The notes: generated by a model from the sequence alone, not told the origin. Positions 1 to 26,042 are shown, counted from the stretch's first letter. The stretch: 64,000 nt of DNA from an uncultured Nitrososphaerales archaeon (GCA_963841565.1 CAWJCY010000001.1:1-64000); one strand, 5' to 3'. Translations and numbers: made by a program.

Positions 1-43
1 TGTTGTGACTACTGTCAAGATAGGAAGGCCATTTTTGATACCT

Positions 44-620
44 CTAATGATTGTTGACAGAAGATTGACTTGTCTGACCGATAGTAGAAGAATACTTTTC
101 TGATAAGGCCTTCGGTTCTGCTTCTGCTTCTGCATCGTCCTCTGCCCAATCCTTTAATAACTGTTCTTCTTCCTTTGCTGTTAGTTTATGTATCTTGGTA
201 CCAGGTCTAACACCAAACCTATCGACATCATAAACCGTTTGAATAGGACTCTTGTGCATCCCTGGAGCCGCTTTATAATACTCATTGATTGTGGCTACCG
301 TACTTAGAATGTCAGATAGTATCTTTGCTCTGTTCATATCTTGGCTGGTTATGTGTTCTTTATCTGCTATCTCCCATTGTTTACGGAGGATTAGTTTTAC
401 AGCATCTAAACATTGTTTATAGTAATAGGTAAAGTCTGACTTAGTTATGTCATAGATGAACTGCTGCGAGATTAGTTTGAGTGCTTTGATGTCTTTTGAT
501 ATCGTAGAGTTGCTACTCCTAACTTTGCAGCTATCTCTACCTCCGTATAAGATTGGGTTACCAAAATAGCGACTTGTCTGCGTCTTTCTTCGGCTAAATA
601 TTGCTGGGGAAATTTTGCAA
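44..620 (-). CDS. HTH-domain protein, paralog of 2666..3112 (frameshift near 515)
   Basis: An alternative frame reads EERRRQVAILVTQSYTEVEIAAKLGV and joins (S)NSTISKDIKALK of ORF 44..760. This aligns with ERRENTLALLTKGMKGYEIAKEIGVDASTVSRDIQYL. Start is approximate. Confidence 0.6.
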
Positions 621-1790
621 AACTTAAATAGTTGAATCATAACAATGGCCAAACATAAAGATTTATGCAGAGTCTCTAACCATTCACTTTTCAATGAGAA
701 ATTTCGAATGTATATCCTTGCGTGACTCTTCTCTAGATGACTGACGTATAATACAAACACGGATGTCCTTTATGAGGGATACTTATAATTTGATGGTTTG
801 TTATTGAGCCCAAAACTAATGTCAAAAATGGTTCACATTACCTGAATAAAACAACACGAATGATGATCGATCTTGGAAAAGAGTCCTGACATTTCAGCAG
901 ATATGTAGATATCGCCCTCGAAATAGCCAGCCGCAGGCAGAATGTTCTGTTTGTCATCATCTTACAGATTTCGAAGAGTATTATCTCCTTCAAGATAAAG
1001 GGCTGACAGATGGTCGATCATGGCATCCAGAGGCATGTCATTATCTTGGCCAGTGTTAGCCCAGGCAGTACCGTTATATTGCCTGCCAGTATATCCGGTA
1101 GGATTTCCCTCTGTTATACTTGTTGATATCTCTAGCCATCTGTTACAGAACTGGAAACTCTACACTAACGACATCATTCTGTACCATTTGATACGTTAGT
1201 CCTTAGTCTTACCGCAAAAGATTGTTCCCCGGTACCAAACTGTTGTATAAGCCATCCGAAGAATCGTCTCCCACAAACCTATCGATAAACAATTCGATAC
1301 TGACGTATTGGGGCTTATAATTATGCATCATTCAAAAAGGCTGGGCATGATGTTGTATTAATGGAACCAAATGACCCAAATAATGAAGATGAGAGAAGCG
1401 GAGCCAGTGGTGATAATTTAAACCCCCCATTATCAATGAACATGAGCAAGAGACATTGCACTTGCCACTCTGGAAATCAATGACGTTACTAGTTAGAAGT
1501 AGTACCTAGCAGAAGCAGTATCTGAAACTACCACACCCATATTTACAGATAGATATGCAGGGCTTACTTCCTCCAGATGACCGCTAGATTTCATGGAGAT
1601 AGAAAGGTAGTGACGTATATAAAGTGGGTAGCAATTTGCAACTTACTAGGTAATCCACACACGACTAACTTTACAAAAGGTTATTACCATATTTAATAGA
1701 TTAGCGAACTATAATATAAAATGATAATATGACTTTAAGGAAGGATAGCAGTAATCTTAACGGCGGCATAAGTACCAACAACCAATCGAG

Positions 1791-2261
1791 ATGGAGATGA
1801 CAATGACTACTGACGCAGAAACCTTGGTGCGCCGCGCGTACCAGTTGGCCGAGGGCAACGTCATGGACGTGCAAGGATTCGTCGACCTGTTTGCCGACGA
1901 CGGAGAAATCAATGCCGGCACCATGAACTTCCGCGGTGAGCAGTTGGGCTGGCTCGTGGTGTTCTTGGCCAAGTTCGCTCCCGACATTCACCGTGAACTC
2001 CATCGGGTGGTCGTTCAGGACAACATCGTTGCGGTCGAGCTGGCGATCCGGGGCACCTTCACCGGGCCATACGAGTCGCCTGCCGGCGTCCTTCAGCCGA
2101 ACGGAGCCAAACTCGACGTTCCCGGCGCTGACTTCTGGGTCGTGGAAGACGGCAAGATCAAGCAGTTCAACTGCCACGTAAGCGTGAACATCCTGCTCGA
2201 ACAAATGGGCGTGCAGGCAGACTTCGCGTCCGCAATCAAAGCACAGGCAGTCGCGGGCTAA
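1791..2261 (+). CDS. SnoaL/NTF2-like (ester cyclase family) protein
   Basis: LVRRAY...FVDLFADDG...APDIHRELHRVVVQDNIVAVELAIRGTFTGP...ADFWVVEDGKIKQFNCH pattern. GGAG lies 6 nt before the ATG at 1803, the likely start. Confidence 0.85.
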   Translation: MEMTMTTDAETLVRRAYQLAEGNVMDVQGFVDLFADDGEINAGTMNFRGEQLGWLVVFLAKFAPDIHRELHRVVVQDNIVAVELAIRGTFTGPYESPAGVLQPNGAKLDVPGADFWVVEDGKIKQFNCHVSVNILLEQMGVQADFASAIKAQAVAG

Positions 2262-2665
2262 GGCAGAACCTCAATCACGCTGGTGGATCGCGGAGACCAT
2301 CTTGAGGGAGAACTACTTCGTGATGCCATTGATACTGTATTTTCAATTGTACCTCTTCATTCTTAGCAGGAAAGATTACCGTGACTTTTAAATCATTTTT
2401 TTCTTTATTAATATCATTGTTTTCAGTTTGATGGGACGCTATATCCATTGACCCTCTATCGAAATTGAATGATTACATAGGTTATCTCTCTTTTTCTGTA
2501 CTACTCTGTATTTTCCGTACTGTTCCATAGCCTTTTTTTTGAGATCACCTAATTCATGGCTCAATTACTGTCGGGGCTCTGCAAGATATTTGAATCCTCC
2601 TCAACCCTATTTGCAATATATTTATCAGTACGAACGTGAATAAATACAATAACTGCAATAATTGA

Positions 2666-3112
2666 ATGCCTAGATCTGTACCACACAACAGAATACAAAT
2701 AAAAGAAAGAAGAGAGAATACTCTGGCTCTTCTTACTAAAGGGATGAAAGGCTATGAGATCGCCAAAGAAATAGGTGTTGATGCATCAACTGTTAGTAGA
2801 GACATTCAATATTTAATTTCTCAATCACATAATTATCTAAATACCTTAGCTAAAGAAGCCCTTCCATTTATGTATCAAACTTCAATAGAAGGAATAAAAA
2901 ATGTGCTCAAAGAATGTTGGAGCATTTATACTTTGGACAGCCATGACAATAATAAAGATTTAACATGGTTTCATAAACTAGCTGCTCTAAAACTTGCAAA
3001 AGAATGTAATGAAGCATTATTCAAACTCACTGCAGAAGGGCCATCTGTAATGTATGTTAAGATTTTAGAGGAGAGATTGGAGAGGATTGAAACTAAACAA
3101 ATCAATCGGTAA
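2666..3112 (+). CDS. N-terminal HTH, all-helical protein
   Basis: GMKGYEIAKEIGVDASTVSRDI HTH signature; AT-rich TATA-like sequence upstream. Confidence 0.75.
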   Translation: MPRSVPHNRIQIKERRENTLALLTKGMKGYEIAKEIGVDASTVSRDIQYLISQSHNYLNTLAKEALPFMYQTSIEGIKNVLKECWSIYTLDSHDNNKDLTWFHKLAALKLAKECNEALFKLTAEGPSVMYVKILEERLERIETKQINR

Positions 3113-3649
3113 CTTAACGAAGAGACTTAATAGACTGGATCCTCATCTTCCTACTTCTCATGTTCCTTCCAGTAATAACAGGATGGGCTTAAGCCATTGG
3201 AAAGGTAAACCCATAATACCAATAGACGAGTGGATCAAGTTTAGAGATACATCTTATGCACTAGATTACTTTCCTGATGACTTCGATCAGACATTGTCAT
3301 TCATTGACTCCCCTATTATCGATATGAATTTGAACGCAAAAAGAGAAGGCTGGAGGCGAAAAGGCGGTCAGATGGATGGTTAAGTGATGAAGTTGGATAT
3401 GGGACGATCTGTCATGATTCAAGAGGTAATTTGGTTGACGGATTAGGCAATCCGATTAAGGAAGCAGAAGCGGTAGAGGAGGATGAAGAACAGGACAGAG
3501 ATGGGGAACTCAGACTTAGATTCAAACTCAAGCAAGACCAAGAAGACATACAGAAGTGGCATTCAGACTATATTCAACTAATGGAGTATGCCAAGAATCC
3601 GAACTATATTTCTTATTGTGCTGATACTGAGGCCCAAAGAATCTTTTGA
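3087..3649 (+). CDS. hypothetical protein (ORFs 3087..3383 and 3431..3649 probably one gene, frameshift ~3310)
   Basis: The frame of the second ORF is open upstream (PYYRYEFERKKRRLEAKRRSDGW...) back to a C-run at ~3310. Confidence 0.5.
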
Positions 3650-3707
3650 GGACATGTTCGAAGTGTTCAGGATGTCGTTAAAATTTTATTATTAATCAGA
3701 GGGGAGA

Positions 3708-3905
3708 CTACCCTTCATCACATAGAGGGGTCAAGTGGGGAGAGCCTAATGCCTTCTTAGCTGCGTCAAGATGTCTCTGTACTCCTTCACCATCGCCATT
3801 CCGTAAAGCAGACTGTGCATCATTGATATGATCCATTGCTTCTCCAGTGCTCAAGTGTAAAACCAGAACTAGGACATACAAGCGGTTCGCAATGAAACAT
3901 CCCAA
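3708..3905 (-). CDS. small, possibly secreted helical protein
   Basis: Hydrophobic N-terminal stretch followed by the helical hairpin EAMDHINDAQSALRNGDGEGVQRHLDAA. Confidence 0.35.
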   Translation of the reverse strand: MGCFIANRLYVLVLVLHLSTGEAMDHINDAQSALRNGDGEGVQRHLDAAKKALGSPHLTPLCDEG

Positions 3906-4119
3906 TAATATGGTGCAGATGAATATCCTTGGCCATTCTATCTCAATAGTTCTGGTGTGCTAATAGCAGTTAGATTGTCCAAATGATTCTAATAGACTTG
4001 GTTCTATAATATCAATATCTATTAAAGAGATCTCAATAAAAGCGACATTCAATGTAATTGATCTAATAAGATGTCCATATGATACACTACCAAGAGATAA
4101 TCCTGATACATACATCATA

Positions 4120-4650
4120 TTGCCAAAACCTCTAAAGGGTATACTCTTTGTCTCATTCGATAATCCATGGTATATGTCAGGTCAAGTCAGGGTTAGGGGA
4201 ATTAGCGGCGGTAAATATCCATTTCATTATCTGGAGATGATAGATTATGTTTTTGGCAGGGAAGAGAATACGATTGAAGTATGCAGTGGCAGTGTTAACG
4301 AGAAATGTTTCACTGTGGATCTCAATCCAGAAACAAATCCTCAGATCGTTGATGATGGGCAGACTCTATATAAAATTCCAAATGACACGTTCAATAGATG
4401 GAGATGTGATCCTCCATACAATGAAAACACGGCCAGAAAGATGTACGGAACCGATCTACCTAAACCAATAAGATTACTCGAGGCAGGTGCAAGAGTCTGT
4501 AGAAAGGGATCTCTGATGTTCATGCTGCTAGGTCCAACAAACTATCAGTGGCACCCTAAAGGAACGAAGCGAATCGCCTACATCGATATGACAGTTGTTC
4601 CGGACAATGAGGTTAGATGTCTTAATGTCTTTTATAAATATGGAGATTAA
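4120..4650 (+). CDS. minimal amino-methyltransferase (N6A/N4C type)
   Basis: Motif I-like EVCSGS, VDLNP, and motif IV DPPY; no room for a large target-recognition domain. Confidence 0.7.
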   Translation: MPKPLKGILFVSFDNPWYMSGQVRVRGISGGKYPFHYLEMIDYVFGREENTIEVCSGSVNEKCFTVDLNPETNPQIVDDGQTLYKIPNDTFNRWRCDPPYNENTARKMYGTDLPKPIRLLEAGARVCRKGSLMFMLLGPTNYQWHPKGTKRIAYIDMTVVPDNEVRCLNVFYKYGD

Positions 4651-5286
4651 TATTTAATGCATGTATATTGATATTTCCAAGTGGTAGTTCATTACAATAA
4701 TGACTGCTGAAAATATGAAATGATCTATGATAGATGATCTAGAAAAATAAGGCTAACTAAATTATTGATTAGTTAATAGGTTCTAGTCGATTACAGGTCA
4801 CATCACGATCATTAGATGTTATTTTGTAAGGGTTAGGAAGAATGAAGGAAGTTGTTACTCTTTGTGCCATTCGTTATAGCAAATACTTTCCAAAGATTGC
4901 CGCAGTTCTCCTTATTTTTATGAGTGTAGGAATCGTTGTAGGAATAATGAGCTGTATTAAAACAAGTAAAATATTAGCGGTGCAAGATTGCCACATGATT
5001 ACAAGTAGCTGATTTAATCCATCTTCTTCTACTATCACATATAAGGGGGGGTACGCCAAAATAGGTAGTTAATGACCATGTCTTCTTTGCGATAAAACTT
5101 CACACCCCCTACCCTTGTTCCTCTCATTTCGATTCTTCCCCTACCGCTACATCATCTGGATCTTTATCATCTGAATTCACTTCACTATCTGAATATACAC
5201 CATCGTTTGCATCCCCTTCCTCCTCAGCATCCTCATCATTCGTATCTATGTCCTCCTCTTCATTCTCGTCCTCAGGATGAGAATGA

Positions 5287-8136
5287 TTACATTGAAGGAG
5301 ATGGTATCGGGATTCCAGTCCTTCTGCTAAATTCTTCATTCAACGATGCTAACAGATCTTCTAACCATCGAAAATCTTTGTTTTCTAATTCCTTATTCTC
5401 AATTCTCTTCGTATTCTCTTTTTCAATCGCATCAATGTCTTCAATGAGTCCCTTGGTTGAAATGTCATAATCAACATGCTCTGCCTCTATCTTATCTACT
5501 TCGTCTGCTGCAGCTATTGTTCCAGCCTTTTCAGCTAACTTATTTGTTATAATTAAACTTGGTAGCATAACATACACTATCTTCTTAAGACTTAGGTTAT
5601 AATCCGCTGTATCGAATAATTCATGGAAGCTCGGAAGAATGAATTCATTCCAAAACCCTTCTGCTCCAACATACGCTATTACATTATCTATTTCTATGCG
5701 TCTGCCATATTTCCCACCAGTTAGAAGCTCCCAGTCCTCTTCAGGTATCAATCCATCATCGTACATCTGCTCTGCAGTTGTAGCATGGTTATTAGCACAA
5801 TAATCTACGTTTACCTTCTTTTCACTGCCCTTGGGTTTGGGCAAATCCTCTACAACTTCATCTATTGGAACATTTAATCTCTCTAAGGTATCAATTCTTA
5901 TGCCAATTCTGGTTATGTTAGGCACTTCTCTCGCCATAGCCCATCCCGAAAAATCATCATCTGTAAGTATCGCCATCCTAGCTCCTTCCTTAGTTGCTAG
6001 TTCAGAGAACTCCTTTGCGTTATCTGTCAGAAAACCCTTGGTATAACACAGAGCAAAACCGTATTTATCTGCCCAATATGTAAGAAGCTCGACAACACCT
6101 TCCTTTTCTATTATGAGAATAAATGTAGCTATCTTCTTTATCCTTTCCAGTTGCTTGAATGATACATCGTAAATCTGTCCTCTAAAGTATATGTGAGCAC
6201 GCGGTGCTTCGTATATTCCAAGTGCTCCTCGTTTTACTCCTATCTTACCTGTTTTTACAAACTGACCATTTACAAGTTTTAATTCAGGCATCTCATCACA
6301 GATGGTCTTAACGAGACTCTGCAGGTACTTTCTTTCTACATGTATCCCACGACGTTCTAGCTCTGGTCTGTATCGATATACTGGAGTGCTGGTATTCCAA
6401 CTATCAGTGTTTTTGATATATGGCTCCTTTAACACTTTTTTATATCGTTCTTCGACGAGATACCCTGCAAAGAGAGCTTTTGCTTCTAATTTATTACCAT
6501 CATCATCCCGTCTTTTATTGCTACCAGAACACATCTTAGAGAGCAAATCAACGAGATCGTAGTAGAATGGATTGAGGTCTATATCCGATTTCCCATAGTC
6601 AGTATATTGTAATTTCGGACACCATAAATTAACTAAAATTATGCTCCTTTCCTTCTCTGGTCTACCATCCTTACCATGAGAATATCCACACTCTTTCAAA
6701 AGGTCCCTTACGCCATATGCCTGCTTCTTAGCACCGCTTTTTGTAGTCCATTCAAGAGAATAGCCATCTGAGAATGAATGGTAATGATTTGGAGCGGAAT
6801 TAATTCCTTCACAATAAAACAAGTAGTAAGGTAGACTGTATGTATGTATGACAGCAACTTCTATTATATATGGAACGCAAGTATCAGTAGTATTCTTAGA
6901 TATATCTGATTTATGATCGTGGTTGTCTGAGTAATAATATCCAATCTTAGTCTTGTATTTTATATGCTTAGGATCATATCCAAGCTGACTAGCTCTTGCA
7001 AATAGAGCTTGTTCTCTGCCCTTAATACTGAATGGGAGTAAATCTCTCTTTAATATGGACTGGTCAGTGGGGGGACCCATAGTATCACGCAACCTTAGAA
7101 ATATGTCTCGTATTTTTTCTTCACTTTCTTGTTTTGATAGTTGTTGTAACTGTCCTACAGGAACGAGCAAATCATCTTCTTTCTTAAGAGAACCCCCTTC
7201 TTTGAAATGACTTATGAGAATATCGTACAATATCATACTTTTATCTTCAATGCCGTAGATTAGATTTTCAAAAGTCGATAGATCAGTCCAATATATGCTC
7301 GTATGTCGTTTACTGTTAGTATTGCTAATAGAGAGCTTTTGGGTTGCGGGTAATGTCACATCCCAGCGCTCATCATCATCAGTAATGGAAGTCACTACAT
7401 CAAAATGAAATGTAATGTGGGTATTGAGCAGTGCATATTTTATGAGAACCAGCTTAATATGGGTTAATTCAATTATATTATCATTATAGGGCAAGTGTGT
7501 CTCAATCTCAGTGAAATTATCATTTGTTGCTGTCGTCTTTTTTATAATAGTACAGTAATTACGTCCCTCGATCTTATCCACAACAGCCCTTATCTCAAAT
7601 TCTTCTTCGGTCCCATTTCTTATGATAAGTGGTTCGTTCCATCCTTCTTTTCCATTGTATTTTGTGCCCAGGGCATAAGGAATGCCCACTTCCTCTTTTA
7701 GAGCATCGCCCTGCAGACCTCGACTTAGCTTGAAAAGATTTCGCTTACTAGAATGAAATCTATCAAGATCATCAAATATAGCATGGATTCGTTCTTCAGT
7801 AAATCCTATATCCTTTGAACCAAAGTTGGAGTTTCTTACCCTTATTACGAGATAGTTTTGTTCTTGATTGTACTTTACATCCACAAAGATTTCTGCATTT
7901 CCATCAAATGAAGATGGGAAATTAACTTCAGAGAAATCCAATGCATTATCAATATTTTCCTTTAATCCAAAAACTGCTAGCTCATCCTCGGTAGCCCCAG
8001 TACGTTTGCAGACTCCGGCAAGAGTGAAATAGTCCATGTTGCTTCTCTCTGATGTGAATAGCGTATTGGAAGGTGAAGTAGGAGAATGGGGGTCAGGGTT
8101 TTTTGCGTTAAATCTACCATGGCCGTTGTGCGTCAA
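5287..8136 (-). CDS. fused TopoVIB-TopoVIA type IIB topoisomerase (Topo VIII-like); probable acidic tail extends to 5124
   Basis: GHKL N-box LKENIDNALD and SSK...SRGLQGDALK; transducer-region PYIIEVA, GINSAP, LWCPKLQYTDYGKS; WHD PVYRYRP (Tyr ~587); Toprim ILIIEKEG...TKGF...LTDDDFSG. Confidence 0.85.
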   Translation of the reverse strand: MTHNGHGRFNAKNPDPHSPTSPSNTLFTSERSNMDYFTLAGVCKRTGATEDELAVFGLKENIDNALDFSEVNFPSSFDGNAEIFVDVKYNQEQNYLVIRVRNSNFGSKDIGFTEERIHAIFDDLDRFHSSKRNLFKLSRGLQGDALKEEVGIPYALGTKYNGKEGWNEPLIIRNGTEEEFEIRAVVDKIEGRNYCTIIKKTTATNDNFTEIETHLPYNDNIIELTHIKLVLIKYALLNTHITFHFDVVTSITDDDERWDVTLPATQKLSISNTNSKRHTSIYWTDLSTFENLIYGIEDKSMILYDILISHFKEGGSLKKEDDLLVPVGQLQQLSKQESEEKIRDIFLRLRDTMGPPTDQSILKRDLLPFSIKGREQALFARASQLGYDPKHIKYKTKIGYYYSDNHDHKSDISKNTTDTCVPYIIEVAVIHTYSLPYYLFYCEGINSAPNHYHSFSDGYSLEWTTKSGAKKQAYGVRDLLKECGYSHGKDGRPEKERSIILVNLWCPKLQYTDYGKSDIDLNPFYYDLVDLLSKMCSGSNKRRDDDGNKLEAKALFAGYLVEERYKKVLKEPYIKNTDSWNTSTPVYRYRPELERRGIHVERKYLQSLVKTICDEMPELKLVNGQFVKTGKIGVKRGALGIYEAPRAHIYFRGQIYDVSFKQLERIKKIATFILIIEKEGVVELLTYWADKYGFALCYTKGFLTDNAKEFSELATKEGARMAILTDDDFSGWAMAREVPNITRIGIRIDTLERLNVPIDEVVEDLPKPKGSEKKVNVDYCANNHATTAEQMYDDGLIPEEDWELLTGGKYGRRIEIDNVIAYVGAEGFWNEFILPSFHELFDTADYNLSLKKIVYVMLPSLIITNKLAEKAGTIAAADEVDKIEAEHVDYDISTKGLIEDIDAIEKENTKRIENKELENKDFRWLEDLLASLNEEFSRRTGIPIPSPSM

Positions 8137-8282
8137 AATCGATGGCCCCCTTCTCCTACTTCAAAAGAGTTAACGTCGAGAGAGCCGAGATCATCATTAT
8201 TGTGATCTTCTCGAATTGACTCACAATCCGTTGGGCCAAAATACTCCATGACCTGATTTTCCGATGATAGTTTATCATTCAT
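8133..8282 (-). CDS. 49-aa acidic ORF translationally coupled to the topoisomerase gene
   Basis: ATG at 8282 reads MNDKLSSENQVMEYFGPTDCESIREDHNNDDLGSLDVNSFEVGEGGHRF. Its TGA overlaps the TTG start of the topoisomerase (TTGA). Too short for the ORF track. Confidence 0.5.
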   Translation of the reverse strand: MNDKLSSENQVMEYFGPTDCESIREDHNNDDLGSLDVNSFEVGEGGHRF

Positions 8283-8303
8283 TTTTGGTGAATAGATCTT
8301 TCA

Positions 8304-9167
8304 TCATCGATGTCGTAACACAGCTAATATCCGTTCAATCACATCCTGTGGAATCCGTGCCGAAAACTGATTCGTCTGAGGATTATATTCGACTGTGAGT
8401 GGAAGAAATTGAGAACCGAATTCGATCTCGGTCTTTCCCTTTATGATTTTCATTTCATTAGATTTTGAGTTTCTTAATTCTTTTTGTAATTGAATATACT
8501 TCTCTTTCCACATCAAATTCTCACTGGCAAATTCTTCAAATTGTGAGCACTTTGTTTGTAAATCGTTTACCTGCGTTTGTAAGGCTTTGACTATATCCCC
8601 TGTGTTTTGTTCCACTTGTGGTTCTATATCTGACTTGACTTCTCTTGGTACATCTGAGCTCGCATCACATACTCCATGCAGATTGGGATTGTTATTACTA
8701 CCCGGATCATCTATTTCATTGACAATTATGCTCTCGCCTGTAGATGATACTTCTATTGGAATCTTATTGTCATTTCGCGAATTGTTCGCTATTTGACTAG
8801 TAGATTGTTCCTTAACTTCCTTCTCGTTTGGATATTTTTCTGCAAGGATCTTTTCAATATATCTTGTGCTAATGTAATCTCCCAATTCACGAGCTAGTGT
8901 AGCGCGAAGCAAGTCCTTGGGATACCGATGCTTTTCAAGAAGAGCGGCTAGATCAAGAATAATCTCTTTTTTACGCCTTGTCTCGTAAAATTTTTTGTGT
9001 TCTTCATACTCCTTGAGCTCGTCCCGCGCTTTCTGAATGTATTCAGATATGTTTTCAGGTAAAGGCTTCTGTTCACCTGCGAATAGCTCTGGTTCTGATC
9101 CCTGTTCTTGTTCTGAATCGATTGAGATATTGTTCTCCTCCAAAGAATCATGAGTTCTATCATGCAT
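8304..9167 (-). CDS. hypothetical protein with helical N-terminal domain, disordered linker and coiled coil
   Basis: 287-aa ORF inside the element operon; heptad-rich VKALQTQVNDLQTKC...LQKELRN. Confidence 0.7.
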   Translation of the reverse strand: MHDRTHDSLEENNISIDSEQEQGSEPELFAGEQKPLPENISEYIQKARDELKEYEEHKKFYETRRKKEIILDLAALLEKHRYPKDLLRATLARELGDYISTRYIEKILAEKYPNEKEVKEQSTSQIANNSRNDNKIPIEVSSTGESIIVNEIDDPGSNNNPNLHGVCDASSDVPREVKSDIEPQVEQNTGDIVKALQTQVNDLQTKCSQFEEFASENLMWKEKYIQLQKELRNSKSNEMKIIKGKTEIEFGSQFLPLTVEYNPQTNQFSARIPQDVIERILAVLRHR

Positions 9168-9173
9168 AGACTT

Positions 9174-10107
9174 CTATTCGCCTCCAGACCATTGATTGTG
9201 GTTATGATTATGATTTAGCTTCTGTTCAAGAGCAAATGTTAAGGTAGTCTTAGGATATTCTTGCCTTTCCAGCCTTATTCTAGTCTTGTGATCTTTCATA
9301 GTTTTGCTGTAGACGCGAAGTAATAGCATCATGTGCTATCCCCCAAGTTGTAAAGAATTTTTCGCCAGTATACTCTACAGAAGCATCAGCACCGAAGTGC
9401 CACATGGTCACAATCCACTCCATGTAATCAGGAATCTTATTGACGGTACTCGACTTAGCACTATCTTGCGAAACTAGTGTTGAGAGTCTTTCTCTTACAA
9501 CGGCAAGGGCATTGGTAAGCCGTATAATGCCTACAACGTCAACAGCAATAGGACTATAAGAGCAGCCTACGATAACACTGACTGTATCTGTCTTGTGTAT
9601 GACAGCCTTCACATCAAGATTCTCTATCTGCCATAGTGGTAGAGAGATGTCTTTGCTAGTGGGATTGATATCATGGTAATAAATCTCATTATTTGCAGCA
9701 TATGACAAAATAGCATTGTATATGTTCGGAACATGAAACTTGAGTCTGATATCATGAACTGAATTTTTGTCTAATGGTAAGTCTATGATAATTCGATAGA
9801 TAGGACTGTTACTGAGTTGAGGCATTGTATTACACGGAATAGCCCCCATATGGTGACGTGTCATTCTGTTCCTATCACCAAAGGTTACATCCGCGAGCGT
9901 ATAGAACGTAAGATTGGATTTGTAGGCTACCTTCACCATCCCTTCCTTCATCAACTTAGAAATTTTATTGCGAAATGTTCCATGCGTTACCTTGTAACAG
10001 ACGTCATCAACTTTGAAATTGAGGAAATCAATATACGAAAAAGGCCTATATTCACAGTGCACTATGTCATACATACGCATCAACACGGCGTTAGTTAGAT
10101 CGGTCAA
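9174..10107 (-). CDS. wHTH + Rep_trans-like rolling-circle replication initiator/relaxase (frameshift ~9325)
   Basis: N-terminal wHTH (GTFRNKISKLMKEGMV), then HDIRLKF and TMWHFGAD. Removing one base gives LRVYSKTMKDHKTRIRLERQE to a TAG at 9174, matching the Rep_trans RIYxK...RxE catalytic motifs. Confidence 0.6.
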
Positions 10108-10119
10108 TACTTGATCCCT

Positions 10120-10353
10120 CTATGAGTCTCCTTCCACACCTGTCATTGTCACTGACTTGTCACTGACTTTTTGTCCACCACTTGTGCTAAGATCCTTATG
10201 ATATTCTCTCACTGAAATACCATGTTCACATTTCTTACAGTTGCAAACGATCCTGTGATTGATATTCTTGTTAGTCCAGATACAAGGGCAAGTTTCACAA
10301 CTCGGGATGCATTCTTCAACAACGAGGTCTTGTATCTCTGGAATGTGTTCCAT
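10120..10353 (-). CDS. small Cys-rich, putative Zn-binding protein
   Basis: CETCPC...CNCKKCEH; start overlaps the stop of the upstream RHH gene. Confidence 0.6.
   Translation of the reverse strand: MEHIPEIQDLVVEECIPSCETCPCIWTNKNINHRIVCNCKKCEHGISVREYHKDLSTSGGQKVSDKSVTMTGVEGDS
10146..10167 (+). repeat. 11-bp tandem direct repeat (TTGTCACTGAC x2) with palindromic GTCAnTGAC core
   Basis: Read directly at 10146-10156 and 10157-10167, ~40 bp upstream of the rep-like start. Confidence 0.8.
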
Positions 10354-10478
10354 TAGTCTAGCTCCCTTTTTTGCTGTTCAAGTAGTTTCGAGATTAAAGC
10401 ATCCATTGTATCAGCCCATCTTGCTCTTTTAGTTAGTTCTTCATATGTGTGGTCTGATACTCTGATTAACTTCGTCAT
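10353..10478 (-). CDS. 41-aa ribbon-helix-helix (CopG/VapB-like) DNA-binding protein
   Basis: MTKLIRVSDHTYEELTKRARWADTMDALISKLLE strand-helix-helix pattern; first gene of the operon. Confidence 0.7.
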   Translation of the reverse strand: MTKLIRVSDHTYEELTKRARWADTMDALISKLLEQQKRELD

Positions 10479-10494
10479 TACAGTATATATTGTA
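10479..10494. promoter_or_regulatory. near-perfect palindrome TACAGTATATATTGTA, candidate operator in the divergent promoter
   Basis: 7 of 8 pairs are complementary. It abuts the RHH start codon and lies between divergent genes. Confidence 0.45.
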
Positions 10495-10526
10495 AACAGG
10501 TCTATTGATTTAGAGGAGGTCACTTT

Positions 10527-11651
10527 TTGGAAAAGAAGGTGCATGACTATGAAATTGATAAAGCCATTTGTAAGTTTCTTTTAAAATATGAGCGTAACAA
10601 TATGTCAAGGAGGAAAATGAAGCGGGTTGTAGAAAGTAGTAACTATCTAGGAAGAAAATTAGGGACTAGGTTATACGAATTTCATATCCAGAGGTTGATA
10701 GAGGCCGGATATATTGTTGAAAAGAAAGATGAATGGAAACGTGGAAAGAAATCGCCATTGCTCCTAACTAATAAAACTCGTGGACAATTAAGACTTAGCA
10801 ACTTGAACATCGAATTCAAGCAACGAGAACATCCCCAATTAAATTCATATACTAAATTGAAAAGATTTCATAACACAAAAGAAGATAGGTTCAAAAGTGA
10901 ATTAAAACGAAACAGGATATACTATATAATAATGCGTGTATTGTCCATCGAAACACCTAACAAACATTATAGATATTCGGGTTTATCAATTACAGATATT
11001 ACTAATGCAAGGTATGACGGCCATGCGTTCTACTCTCTTCGGCTTGAATACGATAGGGAAATGATTCAAGAGTGTCTTAACAACCTGAAGAGAGAAAAAA
11101 TTGTAAGTGAAATTAAGATACCAGTAGATGACGAATCACGGTATAAACTCGTCGGTCTTAGGTGGAAATCATTTGTGACCGAATGCGCTCAGTTGCTAGA
11201 AGATAGTGTATTGATGCGCCTTCACATTAAATGGAAGAATCTTAGACCTTGTAGTTCTCAGGAGAGAATTTGGTATGAATCATGTTGGGGTGATAGAGAC
11301 GCTAATGGACATTTGATTAGTGTCTATAAGCATTATAAAGAAAATCAGGAAAAATCTAACGAGCAATACAAGGAGCAGATTCTAGACCTTACAATGCACC
11401 TTGATTACAACATTAATCAAAGTCATAAAAATCTTGAATCAAAATACTCCGATTTAGCAAGAAGATGTTCTTCCGTTTATAATATGATAATAGAAACGAT
11501 ATACCCAGAGTTTCTTCGTTTGGAGATAGAGAAAACGCTCGATAACCGTAAAAATAAAGACATGAAATATCTAAAACTACAGTCTGCTCGTTTCGATGAC
11601 GTTCTAACATTCCATGATTCTGTTCAATCCATGACTTACGAAGTTGATTAG
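10527..11651 (+). CDS. basic, multi-wHTH putative regulator of the element
   Basis: YEFHIQRLIEAGYIVEKK and IQECLNNLKREKIVSEI...RYKL wHTH-like segments; divergent from the rep operon and convergent with the integrase. Confidence 0.55.
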   Translation: MEKKVHDYEIDKAICKFLLKYERNNMSRRKMKRVVESSNYLGRKLGTRLYEFHIQRLIEAGYIVEKKDEWKRGKKSPLLLTNKTRGQLRLSNLNIEFKQREHPQLNSYTKLKRFHNTKEDRFKSELKRNRIYYIIMRVLSIETPNKHYRYSGLSITDITNARYDGHAFYSLRLEYDREMIQECLNNLKREKIVSEIKIPVDDESRYKLVGLRWKSFVTECAQLLEDSVLMRLHIKWKNLRPCSSQERIWYESCWGDRDANGHLISVYKHYKENQEKSNEQYKEQILDLTMHLDYNINQSHKNLESKYSDLARRCSSVYNMIIETIYPEFLRLEIEKTLDNRKNKDMKYLKLQSARFDDVLTFHDSVQSMTYEVD

Positions 11652-11660
11652 TAACCAGAT

Positions 11661-13019
11661 TTATGCTTGATAAATTCCTTGCTCAATCAACCGTTTTGCT
11701 ATCTCTTGCTTACCCTCTGGCTGGTTTATAGAACCTAGAATTGTTAAGAGACTATGCATCTGTGACTGCATAGTGTTTAATCTCCCTTCAAGAGATCTAA
11801 ACTTTGCATTTTCCTGTTCCTTTATTTCTTCATATCCATCGGCGGTTAATGGATAACTGCATTTTGAACAGTATTCGCAATCTATTGCATTTATGAAAGT
11901 ACATCTATGACAAGAACAACTGAATTGGACTTTTTTGTAGTTCCAGATTTGAAATGATTCCATTTTCTAAAAGAATCTTTTCCTTCAAATTGTTACCCAT
12001 TCTTGCCTTGATATATCTAGAGGGTTGTTTTGAATTCATAGACCATCTGACTTTCTTCTTTAGAGCATAATCAGGAAGATAGTCAGAATCATGCGAGATA
12101 GAGGAATGTCTAAGGCAATAGGGATTGAATCGTTTTGTATTAATTAATAATTGTAGTCTTTCTCTTTCAGCATCATCAGTTATTGAACCAGTTTCGATTA
12201 ACCGTTTTATCCGCAATCGTAGTTGTTTCATCATAGTCCAAAGCGCTTCAGGTTTGATGGGTGCGCCATTATTTAGGCTACAGATTAGTCTTGCCTCTGG
12301 AGCTATTGCGAAAGGGATGTTCATTGAGCCAATCTCTAACATAAGGAAATGAAAAGGTTAGAAGAATCGGGCCAGAGCCTGTTTTTGCTTGATGAGGAAT
12401 TTCTCCTTCCCCATACCGTTCATTTAGTCTGATATGCTTTAGGCGCAGCAATGTGATTTCATGATTGCGCCCATTCAGATCCCAAAGGAGTGAGAGTATA
12501 GCCTTATTGCGCTTGTGGGGTTCATATTTGATAACTGTCTGAAGTTCCCTGATATCCCAGATCTCGTGTTCTCCGTACGGGCTTAATCTTTTTGTTTTCT
12601 TCTTCTTGATATTCACGAACTCCGGCGTACACCAATCAGTCGATGACGACGGTTGATCTTTCACCTGCTCAAAGCTACAATTATGTAACCACCTAAAAAA
12701 ATGCTTAATACGGACAAGATAGTCATTCCATGTCGTAATCCATCGTTGCTCAGGATCATTCAGAGTTGGATTTGATTTTCTTATCAAGAAATTTGATTAC
12801 TTGTTCTTTAGCGGAAATTTGATAGAAGGTTGTCCCATATCCTATGAACTCAGCAAATGCAATCACGGCTTTGAGGTTGTTATTCTGATGTCTTTCCGAG
12901 GTAGCATTACCTTTCATATAAGAATGGAAATCTTCAATTAACTTTGAATTCATAGAATTTGGCACTCTGTCGTAAATATGCCTGACCGTAGTGGAAAGCG
13001 TAGTGGGCATCAGCACCAT
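11661..13019 (-). CDS. tyrosine recombinase/integrase with C-terminal Zn ribbon (three +1 frameshifts)
   Basis: NGRNHEI (R), AKTG (K), PYCLRHS, VRWS and PSRY (Y) motifs, then CHRC...CSKC. Four ORF-track fragments each join by removing one base. Confidence 0.9.
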
Positions 13020-13102
13020 CTCCTTTCACGGCGGTTGTTCGTCATTGTGTATGTTATTAGTACATCTAAGGTCTTCAGAAGTATATGAACCCACGTAGTA
13101 GG

Positions 13103-13176
13103 TGGGCCCAAGGGGGTTTGAACCCCTGGCCGACCGGTTATGAGCCGGTCGCTCTACCAGGCTGAGCTATGGGCCC
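13103..13176 (-). tRNA. tRNA-Ile2 (CAU)
   Basis: GGGCCCATAGCTCAGCCTGGTAGAGCG ACCGG CT CAT AA CCGGT...GGGCCCA cloverleaf. The GGGCCC acceptor stem is typical of archaeal Ile rather than Met tRNAs. Confidence 0.9.
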
Positions 13177-13236
13177 ACGAAAAATCCCTTAAGTGGTTCG
13201 ATATTAAAACGTTTGACTTAGTATCATTCCTGATAG

Positions 13237-13908
13237 CTAATTTCTGATTGAAAGGTAGGTATCACATACACCGTCTAAAATCATGTTTTGGCATTTTAAA
13301 GATATTGAGGCTGCGTCCAATATAGTTTCATGTTGAGAGCCAGGCATCAGTTCCAGAAGAGAACGCCAGAGTTCTGCATGCTCGATGTCGACTTTTTCAT
13401 GTATTCTGAAATAATTTAGAGCGTTATCATTTCGAACACCATAAAATTTTACCAGGCCTTCAATCTTTTTCGTGCTTATCTCAGGCAGCTGCTTTTCATA
13501 CGCATAAAGTGTCGATATTCCAGTAGATAAAGATCCTCGAGTCAGCTCATTCATCCCCGCGATTGCATCTTGAGTCTTTTTGGAACATTCGTAATCATAG
13601 AGTTCATTTTGTATTACCCCGATCGATTCTGCAAAAGATACCCAGGGGGCGACGTGTACCTTCTCTTCCTCCAAATTATGCTTTATTGCGGTACTTAATG
13701 CATATTTTCTTTCTAACTCAGGTGTTACCTGTTTAAGCACATTACCAACGAGAGTAGGGACGGCTTTCACCAATTGAAAATATTCTTTGGAATACCCCCG
13801 CAAATCCTCCATCGAAAGTGATCCTGCTGACCACATTTGGTAGAACCTGTGCTTCAGTAAGCTCTTGTCCTGAATGTCAGCGTCCACGGAGTGTATTAAT
13901 AGCGACAC
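13237..13908 (-). CDS. CADD/PqqC-like heme-oxygenase-like dimetal protein (putative pABA synthase)
   Basis: LLKHRFY, NLEEE..H..W, LYAYE...KKIEGL..FYG, YFRIHEKVDIEH. Confidence 0.8.
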   Translation of the reverse strand: MSLLIHSVDADIQDKSLLKHRFYQMWSAGSLSMEDLRGYSKEYFQLVKAVPTLVGNVLKQVTPELERKYALSTAIKHNLEEEKVHVAPWVSFAESIGVIQNELYDYECSKKTQDAIAGMNELTRGSLSTGISTLYAYEKQLPEISTKKIEGLVKFYGVRNDNALNYFRIHEKVDIEHAELWRSLLELMPGSQHETILDAASISLKCQNMILDGVCDTYLSIRN

Positions 13909-15286: not shown

Positions 15287-16894
15287 CTAGCTGAAACTAG
15301 TCCCTGTTGAGTATGCAATGATAAAAGATGAGGACGTAACTGGAGGGAGTACTCCAGAGGAATTAACAATGCTTTCTCCGGTACCAGTCGAATTCGTGGA
15401 TATCAATGTCATTGTTTCCGCGAGATTGGGCACAGCTTCTGACGCGAATTCAAGGATTGGAGCATGCCAAATTCCAAATCCTACCATGAAAACAACACCG
15501 AAAATCAAAACTGCTACCATTGCCTTTGGCTCTTTTACACGACTCATATCAGGAGATTCTTCCATGTACATTTTTCGCATGATCCAGGCATAATAAGCGA
15601 GAGACAACGCGCTATTGAGGACACCTGCTATTGCGAGATATGGCCCCCATTCAACCAATGGACCACTATCTATTGCGGCTCCAAATAGCACCAGCTTGCT
15701 CCAGAATCCATTTAGAGGAGGAAGCCCTGCCAATGCCAATAATGAGATCGACAAGCATATGGCGGTGATCGGCATTCTCCTGCCAAGGCCCCTATATTTT
15801 TCCAGGCTATAACCTGCAAGAACAACTGCCACACAGGCGGCGGCAATGAACGCAGTGGATTTCATGACTGCATGATTCATAATGTGAAATAGCGATCCTG
15901 TGAGGCCTTCTTGAGAGTAGGGCGCCACGGCCATGCCTATCAGAATATAGCCTGCTTGTGCAATGCTTGAGTATGCAAGCATCCTGGTAACACTTTTTTG
16001 CATAATCGCCGCCAGATTGCCCAATGTCATCGTAAATACCGCTAATATCGCCAAAGTCACAGTCCAGTCGGTATTCAAGGCAAAAATCCCAAGAATAATG
16101 ACACGAATTGCTGCAGCAAATCCTGCCTTCTTTGTTCCGGCTGCTAGTAGAGCACTGATAGTGGTAGGTGATCCTTCATAGGTATCAGGTAGCCACATGT
16201 GAAATGGTACAAGACCCATCTTAAAGCCAAAACCAGCTATAAATAACCCTATAGCCAATAATCCGACCGGAACTAGTTCAGGTCCAAGTGTAGCAAATGT
16301 AGTAATGGCTACCCCGATATTTGTTGATCCCGTTATGCCGTACACTAATCCAATGGCAAACACAAGAATAGCTGAAGATAGCGCTCCAAACATGAAATAT
16401 TTGATAGCGGCCTCATTTGAAATGGGATCCCGCTTCGCAAAAGCGGCTAGTGCATAAGTAGGTATAGACATCAACTCCCATGCAACCAATAACATTACCA
16501 AATCTGTTGAATATCCAATGAGTACCATTCCGATACTTGATAGCAATAATAGCGAATAGTAAGCCGCAGGATTTGCCCTCCCTTTCATATAAGTCCAGGA
16601 TGAAGCAGCAACCACAATGGAGACAATGAGAAATGCGACTGCGAAAAATGACCCGAACATATCATCGGTGAGAACTTCATTACCAAATGCAACAGCTGGG
16701 AGGACTTCGCCACTCAAGACTCTAAAAATAACGATACCAATGGAAAGGACAAGCGCTCCAAAAGCAATCATGCTGTATATCTTGTTATTGTTGGCACCTC
16801 GCTCCTTCCTTAATGCGTCAATGACTGGAATGCCAAGTCCAACGGCAGCAAGTATAGTTGTTACCAGAATTGGTGTAGATAGTATTTCTACCAT
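15287..16894 (-). CDS. nuoN: complex I subunit N
   Basis: WELMS, EAAIKYF, FKMGLVPFHMWLPDTYEGSP, RMLAYSSIAQAGY. Confidence 0.95.
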   Translation of the reverse strand: MVEILSTPILVTTILAAVGLGIPVIDALRKERGANNNKIYSMIAFGALVLSIGIVIFRVLSGEVLPAVAFGNEVLTDDMFGSFFAVAFLIVSIVVAASSWTYMKGRANPAAYYSLLLLSSIGMVLIGYSTDLVMLLVAWELMSIPTYALAAFAKRDPISNEAAIKYFMFGALSSAILVFAIGLVYGITGSTNIGVAITTFATLGPELVPVGLLAIGLFIAGFGFKMGLVPFHMWLPDTYEGSPTTISALLAAGTKKAGFAAAIRVIILGIFALNTDWTVTLAILAVFTMTLGNLAAIMQKSVTRMLAYSSIAQAGYILIGMAVAPYSQEGLTGSLFHIMNHAVMKSTAFIAAACVAVVLAGYSLEKYRGLGRRMPITAICLSISLLALAGLPPLNGFWSKLVLFGAAIDSGPLVEWGPYLAIAGVLNSALSLAYYAWIMRKMYMEESPDMSRVKEPKAMVAVLIFGVVFMVGFGIWHAPILEFASEAVPNLAETMTLISTNSTGTGESIVNSSGVLPPVTSSSFIIAYSTGTSFS

Positions 16895-16937
16895 TTTCTT
16901 TCTGCTTGCCTCCTCTTCTTTCTCTCCCTACTCATCT

Positions 16938-19055: not shown

Positions 19056-19057
19056 AA

Positions 19058-21022: not shown

Positions 21023-21030
21023 CTATCTTG

Positions 21031-21333
21031 TTACCCTCTTAAGGACTTAAATTCTTCAACATCAATTTCTTTGTAAAGTCTGTAAGCTATGATAATTATT
21101 CCCAGCCCCACAGCGACTTCAGCTGCCGCTATTGCTATCGAAAATAGCGCAAACGTTTGTCCTTGTACGTTAGATAGCCCCCGTGAGAAAGCTACCAAGT
21201 TTAGATTAGCTGCATTTGCAACTATTTCGATCGCAAAGATCATCCTTATTGCGCTACGTTTGGCGACAAGTCCATAAATTCCTATTCCAAATAGGATTGT
21301 CGAAATTATTACATAATCAATTATCTCAACCAT
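21031..21333 (-). CDS. nuoK: complex I subunit K
   Basis: IEIVANAANLN...IAAAEVAVGL. Confidence 0.95.
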   Translation of the reverse strand: MVEIIDYVIISTILFGIGIYGLVAKRSAIRMIFAIEIVANAANLNLVAFSRGLSNVQGQTFALFSIAIAAAEVAVGLGIIIIAYRLYKEIDVEEFKSLRG

Positions 21334-21856
21334 CTTTTGTTTCTATATCCTCCCTTCTAGCCAGAGCAAGTGCTCCAATAATTGACCCACCAAGGACTAA
21401 TCCCAAAGCTATCAGCACCGGTGAGTAATAGGTTAACATTTCTTCCCCTATGGCTTTAAAATCGACCGGGGGCATCTGCAGATTCATTAACTGCGGATTA
21501 CTTAGTCCTGACACTAGTAACAAAGCACCAAGTCCGATCATAAATATAAGTACAGGTACAACTCCAGAAGCCTTTCTTCCTTTATCTTCCTTGGTTGAAA
21601 ATAATGCCTGAGTTCTAACAAGCATCACAGTAAAGATAATCAGCACGGCAACAGCACCAACGTAAACAAGAATCTGAAACATGGCAACAAAAGGAGAATC
21701 TAGGAGAAGGAAGAACCCTGCGATACCTAACATGGAGATCGCAAGTGCTATTCCCCCATAGATTAGCTCTCTTGTTTCAAGTGCCACTATAGCTGAGCCG
21801 ACAGTTAAGGCAGAGACAGCCAAAAACACAGGGTCATCCATTACCATGGTTAGCAC
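21326..21856 (-). CDS. nuoJ: complex I subunit J
   Basis: FVAMFQILVYVGAVAVL. Confidence 0.93.
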   Translation of the reverse strand: MLTMVMDDPVFLAVSALTVGSAIVALETRELIYGGIALAISMLGIAGFFLLLDSPFVAMFQILVYVGAVAVLIIFTVMLVRTQALFSTKEDKGRKASGVVPVLIFMIGLGALLLVSGLSNPQLMNLQMPPVDFKAIGEEMLTYYSPVLIALGLVLGGSIIGALALARREDIETKDG

Positions 21857-23651: not shown

Positions 23652-23657
23652 TGCTCC

Positions 23658-24818: not shown

Positions 24819-24822
24819 GCGA

Positions 24823-25464: not shown

Positions 25465-25465
25465 A

Positions 25466-25981: not shown

Positions 25982-26042
25982 TGTCGGAACCTAACTCCAC
26001 CTCTGCTTGCTAAGTATTTATTCATTGTCAAAATCATCTGTG

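Follow-up and report, generated by a model that had tools for sequence, protein, structure and literature searches.

A divergent single-chain homologue of type IIB topoisomerases, of the Topo VIII kind, on integrated elements of Nitrososphaerales archaea

The Topo VIII enzymes form a small family of type IIB topoisomerases about which little is understood; in them, counterparts of the two Topo VI subunits are fused into one chain. As far as the accessible text of a 2020 survey goes, the family then comprised 82 sequences, of which four were archaeal and all of these from Euryarchaeota (PMC7671362). Reported activities range from ATP-dependent relaxation and decatenation, through ATP-independent relaxation, to plain linearisation (PMC4117785, in its accessible part). 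The accessible portion of a 2021 review names no characterised archaeal Topo VIII and gives the Nitrososphaeria one type IIB enzyme, without an extra one (PMC8185306); the main text of a survey of thaumarchaeal elements, in its accessible part, mentions type IA topoisomerases only (PMC6563490). Our literature search recovered no thaumarchaeal Topo VIII, although supplementary tables of PMC7671362 or PMC6563490 might list a member. Here we describe a fused topoisomerase gene in a window of 64,000 nucleotides from an uncultured Nitrososphaerales archaeon, an ammonia oxidiser of soil (GCA_963841565.1, CAWJCY010000001.1:1-64000), the window being the whole stretch analysed and the first 64 kb of contig C1 in a genome of 2.05 Mb and 13 contigs. 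With a probability that we put at roughly 70%, its product is a type IIB topoisomerase of the Topo VIII kind in a single chain, belongs to a separate clade centred on the Nitrososphaeraceae and works as a homodimer for a mobile element. Within the known Topo VIII family, this thaumarchaeal clade is apparently undescribed.

The original prediction placed a single open reading frame (ORF) of 949 amino acids at 5287-8136. That open frame is real and begins at a TTG, but it lies on the minus strand, the plus-strand translation of the same interval containing many stops, and the gene probably starts further in, at an ATG at 8037. A database record identical to the window protein (P0002) has 916 residues and begins at this internal ATG (MDYFTL..., window 8037), and the 53-sequence family alignment (A1), from which all conservation counts below are taken, likewise begins at its MDY; the likely gene is therefore 5287-8037. 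Residue numbers refer to the 916-residue version, and those of the 949-residue frame are higher by 33. The gene and its domains are as follows:

5287..8037, minus strand: gene of the 916-residue single-chain type IIB topoisomerase homologue; stop codon at 5287-5289, frame open upstream to the TTG at 8136
7330..8037, minus strand: GHKL/Bergerat ATPase fold, about residues 1-236; borders approximate, from secondary structure
7033..7329, minus strand: helical insert at the H2TH position of Topo VI-B, about residues 237-335; from model helices, border approximate
6493..7032, minus strand: transducer domain, about residues 336-515, carrying the switch lysine K483 (NLWCPKLQYTDYGKS); from the profile alignment, K483 in 53/53
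6136..6492, minus strand: 5Y-CAP (winged-helix) domain, about residues 516-634; from the 1d3y_A alignment and column counts
5617..6135, minus strand: Toprim domain, about residues 635-807; from the 1d3y_A alignment, column counts and Pfam matches of members
5290..5616, minus strand: C-terminal helical tail, residues 808-916; from model helices, predicted to be the tightest part of a homodimer interface

The fold of the protein is that of both Topo VI subunits in succession. An AlphaFold model of the 916-residue protein, built from A1, has a mean predicted local distance difference test score (pLDDT) of 85.3 and contains the GHKL and Toprim folds that the original prediction expected, with matches to Topo VI-B and Top6A. 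The best PDB matches in a Foldseek search are Topo VI-B chains (E 3e-18). In VIA-align comparisons, residues 1-527 align with Topo VI-B (1mu5; Z 25.6, root-mean-square deviation 5.0, 424 aligned) and residues 516-807 with Top6A of M. jannaschii (1d3y_A; Z 17.0, root-mean-square deviation 3.3, 246 aligned), in agreement with the fused B-A layout claimed for this one frame. The B-like alignment ends at 527-544 and the A-like alignment begins at 516, leaving no spare segment between them, a statement about ranges only, as 1d3y itself begins at about residue 72. The insert at the H2TH position falls within the stretch 1-527 aligned to Topo VI-B chains, and the family profile pairs the transducer part with the KIPYKSAGKESI stretch in Topo VI-B. 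In all 53 members of A1 the Toprim domain is followed by a tail of 92 residues or more, which aligns only in part, and with Topo VIII of the haloarchaeal type only.

Invariant in 53/53 sequences are N31, D34, K98, R99, G107, G110, K483, Y554, R557, E644, K645, G647, D693, D695, G698, R780, E782 and I783, which include residues on the Mg2+/phosphate side of the ATP site along with the switch lysine, the catalytic tyrosine, the Toprim acids, and the Arg and Glu of the T2BI box; D784 is kept in 48/53, P558 in 39/53 and A112 in 50/53, the last giving a G2 box of the GxxGxA type. The GHKL part holds the N box (E27/N31/D34), a degenerate G1 box (VRN69SN), an ATP lid (S96-S97-K98-R99) and the G2 box (G107xxG110-D-A112); the 5Y-CAP domain holds W547, S550, the catalytic Y554 and R557-P558; and the Toprim domain holds E644-K645-E-G647, D693xD695xxG698 and the T2BI box R780-I-E782-I-D-N-V. 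Every motif that had been read from the translation is thus present as described: KENIDNALD (E60/N64, now E27/N31, with E27 in 48/53 and Gln in the other 5, and N31 in 53/53), SRGLQGDALK (G107 and G110 in 53/53, A112 in 50/53), the transducer motif CPKLQYTDYGKS (K516, now K483, 53/53), the winged-helix Tyr587 (Y554, 53/53), IEKEG (E677, now E644, 53/53) and the Toprim pair D726/D728 (D693/D695, 53/53). Selection on the gene is purifying: the ratio of nonsynonymous to synonymous substitution rates (dN/dS) is 0.10 over 916 codons against L006 and 0.13 over 906 codons against L007, the two relatives closest to it.

Single sequences of this family are poorly recognised by existing resources. Searches with the 949-residue protein gave 0 matches in Pfam, NCBIfam, PADLOC and the PDB (phmmer, E<=10), and 0 in PHROGs, where two of five proteins scanned matched phrog_6247 weakly. 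The A-like half found no match by tblastn in 50,697 phage records, a scan of IMG/VR with family patterns gave 19 pattern matches and 0 relatives, and a BFVD fold search returned generic matches only, of the type IIA topoisomerase, RIIA and Hsp90 types. A protein collection clustered at 90% holds 142 relatives, all unnamed or 'hypothetical'; where a source is named, it is Nitrososphaeraceae, Nitrosopolaris or, once, Bathyarchaeia metagenome-assembled genomes (MAGs). Among 1.84 billion clusters at 50% identity, 678, 407 and 87 representatives match at E<=1e-3, 1e-10 and 1e-30.

The A1 profile, searched against PDB sequences, reaches Topo VI-B at E 7e-5 through the GHKL stretch and the switch-lysine transducer stretch, and the 53 members scanned singly against Pfam match DUF2399 (32/53; weak, best E 1.6e-6), HATPase_c (21/53), Toprim (13/53), TOP6A-Spo11_Toprim (5/53) and Topo-VIb_trans (3/53). 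The first of these, which we take to be the C-terminal domain of JetD, raises the possibility that the protein is no topoisomerase but a nuclease for defence or against plasmids, akin to Wadjet JetD or to other Toprim nucleases; the location of the gene on mobile DNA would also suit such a role. We hold this to be highly improbable: the window protein has a full Topo VI-B-like half, and we know of no such GHKL half in JetD; the best structural match of its C-terminal half is Top6A, 5Y-CAP included; its end-to-end alignment is with Topo VIII; PADLOC gave 0 matches; and no SMC-like partner was recognised among the neighbours, which mostly resist annotation. That no JetD chain occurs among the 50 structural matches listed is no evidence of difference.

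Affinity to Topo VIII emerges from direct comparison. The top tblastn match among 72,556 plasmids is a gene on plasmid 5 of H. jeotgali B3 (E 1e-4, 25.7% identity), and the second-best lies on pBASL58 of Pseudomonas sp. Leaf58, both plasmids being named as Topo VIII hosts in the accessible parts of two sources (PMC4117785; PMC7671362). Profile-profile comparison of the A1 profile by hhalign gives E 7.2e-27 over 743 columns, end to end, for H. jeotgali Topo VIII; E 1.8e-16 over 622 columns for that of Leaf58 pBASL58; and E 7.5e-15 over 606 columns for the characterised P. polymyxa pPPM1a enzyme (751 residues). The subunits of the host's own Topo VI, encoded by an adjacent Top6B/Top6A pair on contig C12, are far weaker matches (Top6B, E 0.011 over 117 columns; Top6A, E 0.083 over 133 columns). 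The proposed Topo VIII affinity is well founded in these full-length matches to three literature-named members.

Phylogenetic trees were built with relatives of the H. jeotgali protein (a 'halo' set of 900-1056 residues and a 'classical' set of about 730-860 residues), the Leaf58 protein, and Top6A and Top6B of Thermoproteota. Fused proteins were split at the B/A boundary and one tree was made per half, with 17 rows from the 53-member A1, 10 from the halo set and 13-14 from the classical set; the outgroup was Thermoproteota Topo VI alone, and bacterial Topo VIII of the GxxGxA type (A. degensii group) and Mini-A lay outside the sampling. In both trees the split between fused proteins and Topo VI has 100/100 support, and the thaumarchaeal, halo and classical groups are each monophyletic (95/98 to 100/100; thaumarchaeal 100/99-100). 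The B-half tree joins the thaumarchaeal and halo groups at 97/93, with a long-branch warning (classical with Topo VI). The A-half tree, also with a long-branch warning, weakly prefers halo with classical (72/56), and its data do not reject thaumarchaeal with halo (log-likelihood difference 0.53; approximately unbiased test, p-AU 0.507). Judging from these sequences, the family is its own clade within the Topo VIII radiation, nested in neither sampled clade, and would be either sister to the haloarchaeal type or basal among the fused proteins. The divergent clade of the original prediction is therefore upheld against Topo VI and two Topo VIII clades, with the bacterial GxxGxA Topo VIII and Mini-A remaining beyond the comparison.

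The trees also bear on another alternative, that an ordinary cellular Topo VI paralogue became fused. The folds are indeed those of Top6B and Top6A. However, the genome already has its adjacent Top6B/Top6A pair on C12, the profile scores with these subunits are only E 0.011 and 0.083, the groups split at 100/100, and the fused gene occurs in 48/238 genomes of the window's family, as against a Top6A marker in 25/25 sampled genomes of the phylum. A fused paralogue is hardly credible on this evidence.

Complex prediction supports a homodimer. Two copies of residues 516-916 scored 0.76, the best of 3 controls scoring 0.00; among solved structures, the score mark was reached by 20/30 one-chain pairs and 1/23 single chains, a rough guide since the family's own alignment was used. 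Agreement between the three runs is at least 83% of contacts, with a partner pLDDT of at least 84. The predicted interface includes residues 543-555 (the Tyr region), 782-793 (T2BI) and the tail, and its T2BI/Tyr-region part corresponds to a contact between subunits that has been described in Top6A (PMC7671362). Confidence is highest for the predicted contacts between tail helices 825-835 and 892-904. Because the Top6A dimer has already been solved, success of the prediction may partly be memory; for the tail contacts, we know of no solved model.

We infer the following mode of action. The Topo VI-B-like half has a GHKL fold, an insert at the H2TH position and a transducer with the switch lysine, and the Topo VI-A-like half has a 5Y-CAP domain with Tyr554 and a Toprim domain with E644, D693 and D695, followed by the helical tail of about 109 residues. 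The protein most likely acts as a homodimer, in which the two tyrosines, with Mg2+ bound at the Toprim domain, would break both DNA strands transiently by way of 5'-phosphotyrosyl links; a second duplex would then be driven through the break by an N-terminal gate that nucleotide operates, and the tail would hold the dimer together as a standing contact. Such an enzyme would probably serve to relax or decatenate the DNA of a small element that resembles a plasmid and integrates at tRNA genes.

Several observations weigh against this proposal. The Asp of the GHKL G1 box binds adenine, and its replacement by Asn in GyrB and Hsp90 abolishes ATP binding. In this family the G1 Asp position, which a HMMER profile alignment with Topo VI-B pairs with N69, is Asn in 52/53 members (Ser in the other one), with GxG lost (VRN69SN......F[TS]); the Asn argues against canonical adenine binding. 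The residue four before the catalytic tyrosine (Tyr-4) is Ser in 53/53, in the context W..ST.[FVY]Y, at a position where Arg is kept in Topo VI, Mini-A and most Topo VIII (PMC7671362). The general-base Glu E27 is Glu in 48/53 and Gln in 5/53. Among the defining marks of Topo VIII are a conserved G1 box (DxGxG) and a catalytic tyrosine in an RxxY/FY context (known variants RxxMY and HxxY/FY); the family lacks the first and, for the second, keeps the tyrosine but has Ser at Tyr-4. In the accessible parts of the sources, the P. polymyxa enzyme (GxxGxG) alone showed ATP-dependent relaxation and decatenation; the GxxGxA enzyme of A. degensii only linearised plasmid, and that of M. marina relaxed without ATP (PMC4117785; PMC7671362). 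Further, the element in the window looks decayed, its integrase being broken into three ORFs and its neighbour gene truncated, and Pfam scans of the neighbours recognised no replication, transfer/conjugation or capsid genes near any copy. Canonical ATP-coupled activity is thus less certain than the motif list suggests, given the lost G1 Asp and glycines and the Ser replacing the Arg before the tyrosine; that list, sound in each of its motifs, had overlooked both of these changes along with the minus strand.

It is possible, therefore, to envisage an enzyme in which ATP is uncoupled from strand passage and which breaks double strands or relaxes DNA independently of ATP, in the manner of the Topo VIII of A. 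degensii and M. marina, or of Spo11. An enzyme of this sort could act in recombination, in upkeep of the element or in manipulating the host. The exchange of the G1 Asp for Asn (52/53) with loss of GxG, the Ser for Arg at Tyr-4 (53/53) and the E27Q members (5/53, including the type of the genome's second copy) would all suit such an enzyme, and the G2 box is GxxGxA, the type of the A. degensii enzyme for which the accessible text reports linearisation of plasmid only (PMC7671362). Yet N31, D34, K98, R99, the G2 glycines and K483 are all kept in 53/53, an invariance not easily reconciled with an idle nucleotide site, and we consider this alternative unlikely. A mechanistically distinct type IIB enzyme is, to our minds, quite unlikely as well: its C-terminal helices might provide, beneath the DNA gate, a second and permanent protein-protein gate without counterpart in Topo VI; with Asn in G1, a non-adenine nucleotide might drive the N-gate, or cleavage and strand passage might be independent of ATP; and the conserved winged-helix neighbour might direct the enzyme to the element's own DNA.

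For the proposed Topo VIII-like homodimer, all other residues of the nucleotide site are invariant, which favours a functional site, and the Asn at G1 could still contact adenine or another base. Further marks of Topo VIII (Gadelle 2014; Takahashi 2020) are present in the family: the N box, a G2 box of GxxGxG or GxxGxA form, the switch lysine, the Toprim Glu with DxDxxG, and an extension of its own behind the Toprim domain. An Arg at Tyr+3, often followed by Pro, is described as specific to Topo VIII and absent from Topo VI and Mini-A, and the T2BI box is the motif that tells type IIB subfamilies apart (PMC7671362). The family keeps this Arg (R557, 53/53, then P558 in 39/53). Its T2BI box reads R-I-E-I-D-[SN]-V against the RVELNAM of Topo VIII, from which the accepted halo clade also deviates (RVEINAF).

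The surroundings of the gene are those of an integrated element. The guanine-plus-cytosine (GC) content is 0.36-0.38 across 4-12 kb, against 0.42-0.45 in flanking genes, and the minus-strand order from the tRNA end is tRNA-Met, integrase remnant, winged-helix neighbour, orphan ORF and topoisomerase gene:

13091..13176, minus strand: tRNA-Met (13101-13176) and element/tRNA junction; likely right-hand attachment site
11661..12787, minus strand: tyrosine integrase remnant with C-terminal zinc ribbon; three overlapping ORFs (12278-12787, 11905-12342, 11661-11963)
9280..10107, minus strand: winged-helix neighbour, 275 residues; N-terminal winged helix, C-terminal domain without assignment
8304..9167, minus strand: acidic orphan ORF of 287 residues between the neighbour and the topoisomerase gene; no Pfam match, 0 relatives in other loci
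4120..4650, plus strand: ORF of 176 residues with a DPPY motif; no Pfam match, a 96% identical copy beside the topoisomerase gene in L010 at the same position
2666..3112, plus strand: the element's helix-turn-helix (HTH) regulator; HTH_11 match short of the cut-off (E 5.8e-5); homologues in 6 topoisomerase loci, cluster of 7 loci

The same arrangement is found elsewhere in better condition. Locus L009 keeps the order intact, with tRNA-Arg, an integrase of 436 residues, the neighbour and the topoisomerase gene, the end of the neighbour overlapping the start of the topoisomerase gene; the three pieces of the window's integrase remnant match that one intact 436-residue ORF. Clustering of ORFs from the topoisomerase loci and the window gives neighbour families of 10 loci (the winged-helix neighbour), 8 loci (the integrase, whose representative L036:2271-3767 has a weak Phage_integrase match, E 1.9e-4, below the cut-off, and a zinc ribbon), 6 loci (a second integrase, PF00589, E 4e-11), and 7 and 7 loci (HTH regulators). 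Homologues of the winged-helix neighbour adjoin the topoisomerase gene in 9 loci besides the window. Its winged helix spans residues 1-75 (Z about 9, in a model of pLDDT 66), there is no Pfam match, a protein-atlas search gave no lead (best score 0.83), and the window copy lacks about 45 C-terminal residues that its homologues have (alignment A2). The DPPY motif of the 4120-4650 ORF presumably points to a possible small DNA methyltransferase. Topo VIII is characteristically carried on mobile genetic elements, and the tRNA, the integrases and the patchy presence of the gene place this family on such elements. The setting fits the 'cryptic integrated elements' of Thaumarchaeota, as the accessible text describes them (PMC6563490).

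Within window positions 1-13400 no direct repeat of the tRNA was found. An exact 30-nucleotide copy of 13091-13120 lies on another contig of the same genome (G000:C2:86060-86089), with weaker core copies nearby; joining of contig C2 to the start of C1 could not be shown. Copies of the tRNA-Met 3' end occur on C2 at 81620, 83866, 86060-86089 and 99003, three of the four followed by a similar GCAAGACTT..GTGTA, and from their sequences these look like traces of repeated integrations at tRNA-Met. Unremarkable genes lie between them (histidine kinase, UDP-glucose dehydrogenase, ferritin, hydrolase). In the window, close by the low-GC element but outside it, two long ORFs overlap on opposite strands at 1701-2204 (minus) and 1791-2261 (plus). 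On its other side, 15287-26417 is a minus-strand run of long membrane-protein genes which, from their translations, resembles an NADH-quinone oxidoreductase (nuo-type) operon and looks like ordinary chromosome flanking the element.

The element in the window is probably immobile, or else the assembly has frame errors. The broken integrase and truncated neighbour gene, together with in-frame stops in 30/108 of the matches listed across relatives and the absence of the tail from the genome's second copy on C12, might suggest that the topoisomerase gene is itself a decaying, functionless relic of an old integration. We judge this very improbable, in that the frame of the window copy is open over its full length, none of its conserved residues is changed, and its dN/dS is 0.10-0.13 against its closest relatives, a ratio that measures constraint on the lineage and not activity in this cell.

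The distribution of the gene is that of a patchy, mobile trait, and it bears out the thaumarchaeal mobile-element setting claimed at the outset: there are 48 loci in GTDB species genomes, all from Nitrososphaerales-type archaea, and in the window the tRNA-Met and integrase remnant lie beside the gene. A whole-genome search of the window's family found a match in 48/238 genomes (46/236 without the unpublished G633 and G561), in 31/116 of its high-quality genomes, and in 10/18 genera, very unevenly (for example 9/13, 0/34 and 0/72); among genomes sampled across the phylum, 2/401 had a match. In-frame stops occur in 30 of the 108 matches listed. Copy number can be high, with 9 loci in MAG MFD05674.bin.1.171 and 7 in MAG MFD09126.bin.2.23 (both Nitrososphaerales); first-look candidates reach 41-42 per genome, of which 3 were scored per genome.

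The window's own genome holds a second fused copy (G000 contig C12:8767-11319; locus L002, ORF 1309-4050), 56.5% identical over 809 codons, in which Gln takes the general-base position (AIRQLIDN) and the chain stops shortly past the T2BI box, without the tail. Split forms also occur, as adjacent stop-free B-like and A-like ORFs, at G421:C279:15414-18232, G409:C215:2174-4926, G418:C2:21961-24909 and G623:C325:69777-72484; there the break falls at about profile position 515-545, a boundary of the Topo VI type, and in other split cases at about 245-265. In another family of the phylum, a 382-residue frame (G228:C4:8962-9783) matches the A-like part of the profile alone (597-872, E 1.4e-40) and could, from that match, be an A-only form.

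These findings add a third, deep clade to the small Topo VIII family, and an abundant one, with hundreds of metagenome clusters at 50% identity and a common presence in soil ammonia-oxidising archaea. The clade offers natural variants at three positions usually held essential (the G1 Asp, the Arg before the tyrosine and the general-base Glu), and these, with the two-gene split forms, are useful material for studying how type IIB enzymes, relatives of Spo11 among them, couple the use of ATP with cleavage and religation. The gene is, in addition, a marker for a family of small elements that integrate in thaumarchaeal genomes and have no recognised replication genes. On the whole, the observation behind the original prediction is confirmed and its interpretation supported.

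For comparison with known systems, the halo reference is the protein of H. jeotgali B3 plasmid 5 (NC_014302.1, WP_238532973.1) with its metagenomic relatives P0263-P0285; the classical reference comprises the P. polymyxa M1 pPPM1a enzyme (WP_014600290.1, 751 residues) and that of Pseudomonas sp. Leaf58 pBASL58. Their diagnostic boxes compare as follows:

N box: classical KELxDNALD; halo KELxDNxL[ED]; thaumarchaeal KELxDNALD
G1 box: classical and halo V.D[DN]G..PGI; thaumarchaeal VRNSN......F[TS]
G2 box: classical RGALGNG; halo RGNQGNA; thaumarchaeal RGALGDA (GxxGxA type)
Tyr surroundings: classical and halo RQxxYxxRP; thaumarchaeal W..STxxYxxR(P)
T2BI box: classical RVELNAM; halo RVEINAF; thaumarchaeal RIEID[SN]V

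Wadjet JetD, a Toprim nuclease whose gene accompanies JetABC, shares with the family a Toprim domain of the Topo VI-A type, reflected in the weak DUF2399 matches of 32/53 members, but no JetABC-like neighbours were seen at the window locus and PADLOC gave no match there. Mini-A, which is virus-borne and compared here by description only, resembles the window protein in having 5Y-CAP and Toprim domains without the N-terminal segment of Top6A and in the Asp at the fifth T2BI position (xWELDAL against RIEIDxV); we list with this likeness the weak phrog_6247 'DNA topoisomerase' matches (E 4e-4 and 1e-3) in 2/5 proteins scanned. Mini-A is, however, A-only and of about 300 residues, whereas the window protein has a full B half and the box RIEID[SN]V. 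With Topo VI the family shares the same five folds in the same order, the catalytic tyrosine, the Toprim acids, the switch lysine, the N box and the G2 box. Topo VI, an A2B2 enzyme present in nearly all archaea, differs in its two separate subunits, canonical G1 box, Arg before the tyrosine and lack of a C-terminal tail, and the N-terminal segment of Top6A has no counterpart in the window protein; Topo VI is also chromosomal, its Top6A marker being found in 25/25 sampled genomes of the phylum, whereas the fused gene is patchy.

Classical bacterial Topo VIII has the fused B-A layout, the N box KELxDNALD, the switch lysine, FYxxRP, IEKEG and DxDxxG in common with the thaumarchaeal proteins, but it is shorter (about 750-800 residues) and has a GxxGxG G2 box, a canonical G1 box, RVELNAM and Arg at Tyr-4. 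The halo type differs in sequence (about 23-26% identity) and in its canonical G1 (DDG/DNGPGI) and RQxxY, and its proteins match Pfam PF21180 and PF02518 singly, whereas the window protein matches no Pfam family. It is like the thaumarchaeal type in being a single chain of about 900-1000 residues with the same domain order, a GxxGxA G2 box and a location on mobile DNA; in a similar switch-lysine stretch (NLxCPxIxFxDKGK against NLISPxIxYKxYGK); and in the tyrosine followed by xxRP, a T2BI box beginning RxEI, and a C-terminal tail that aligns in part.

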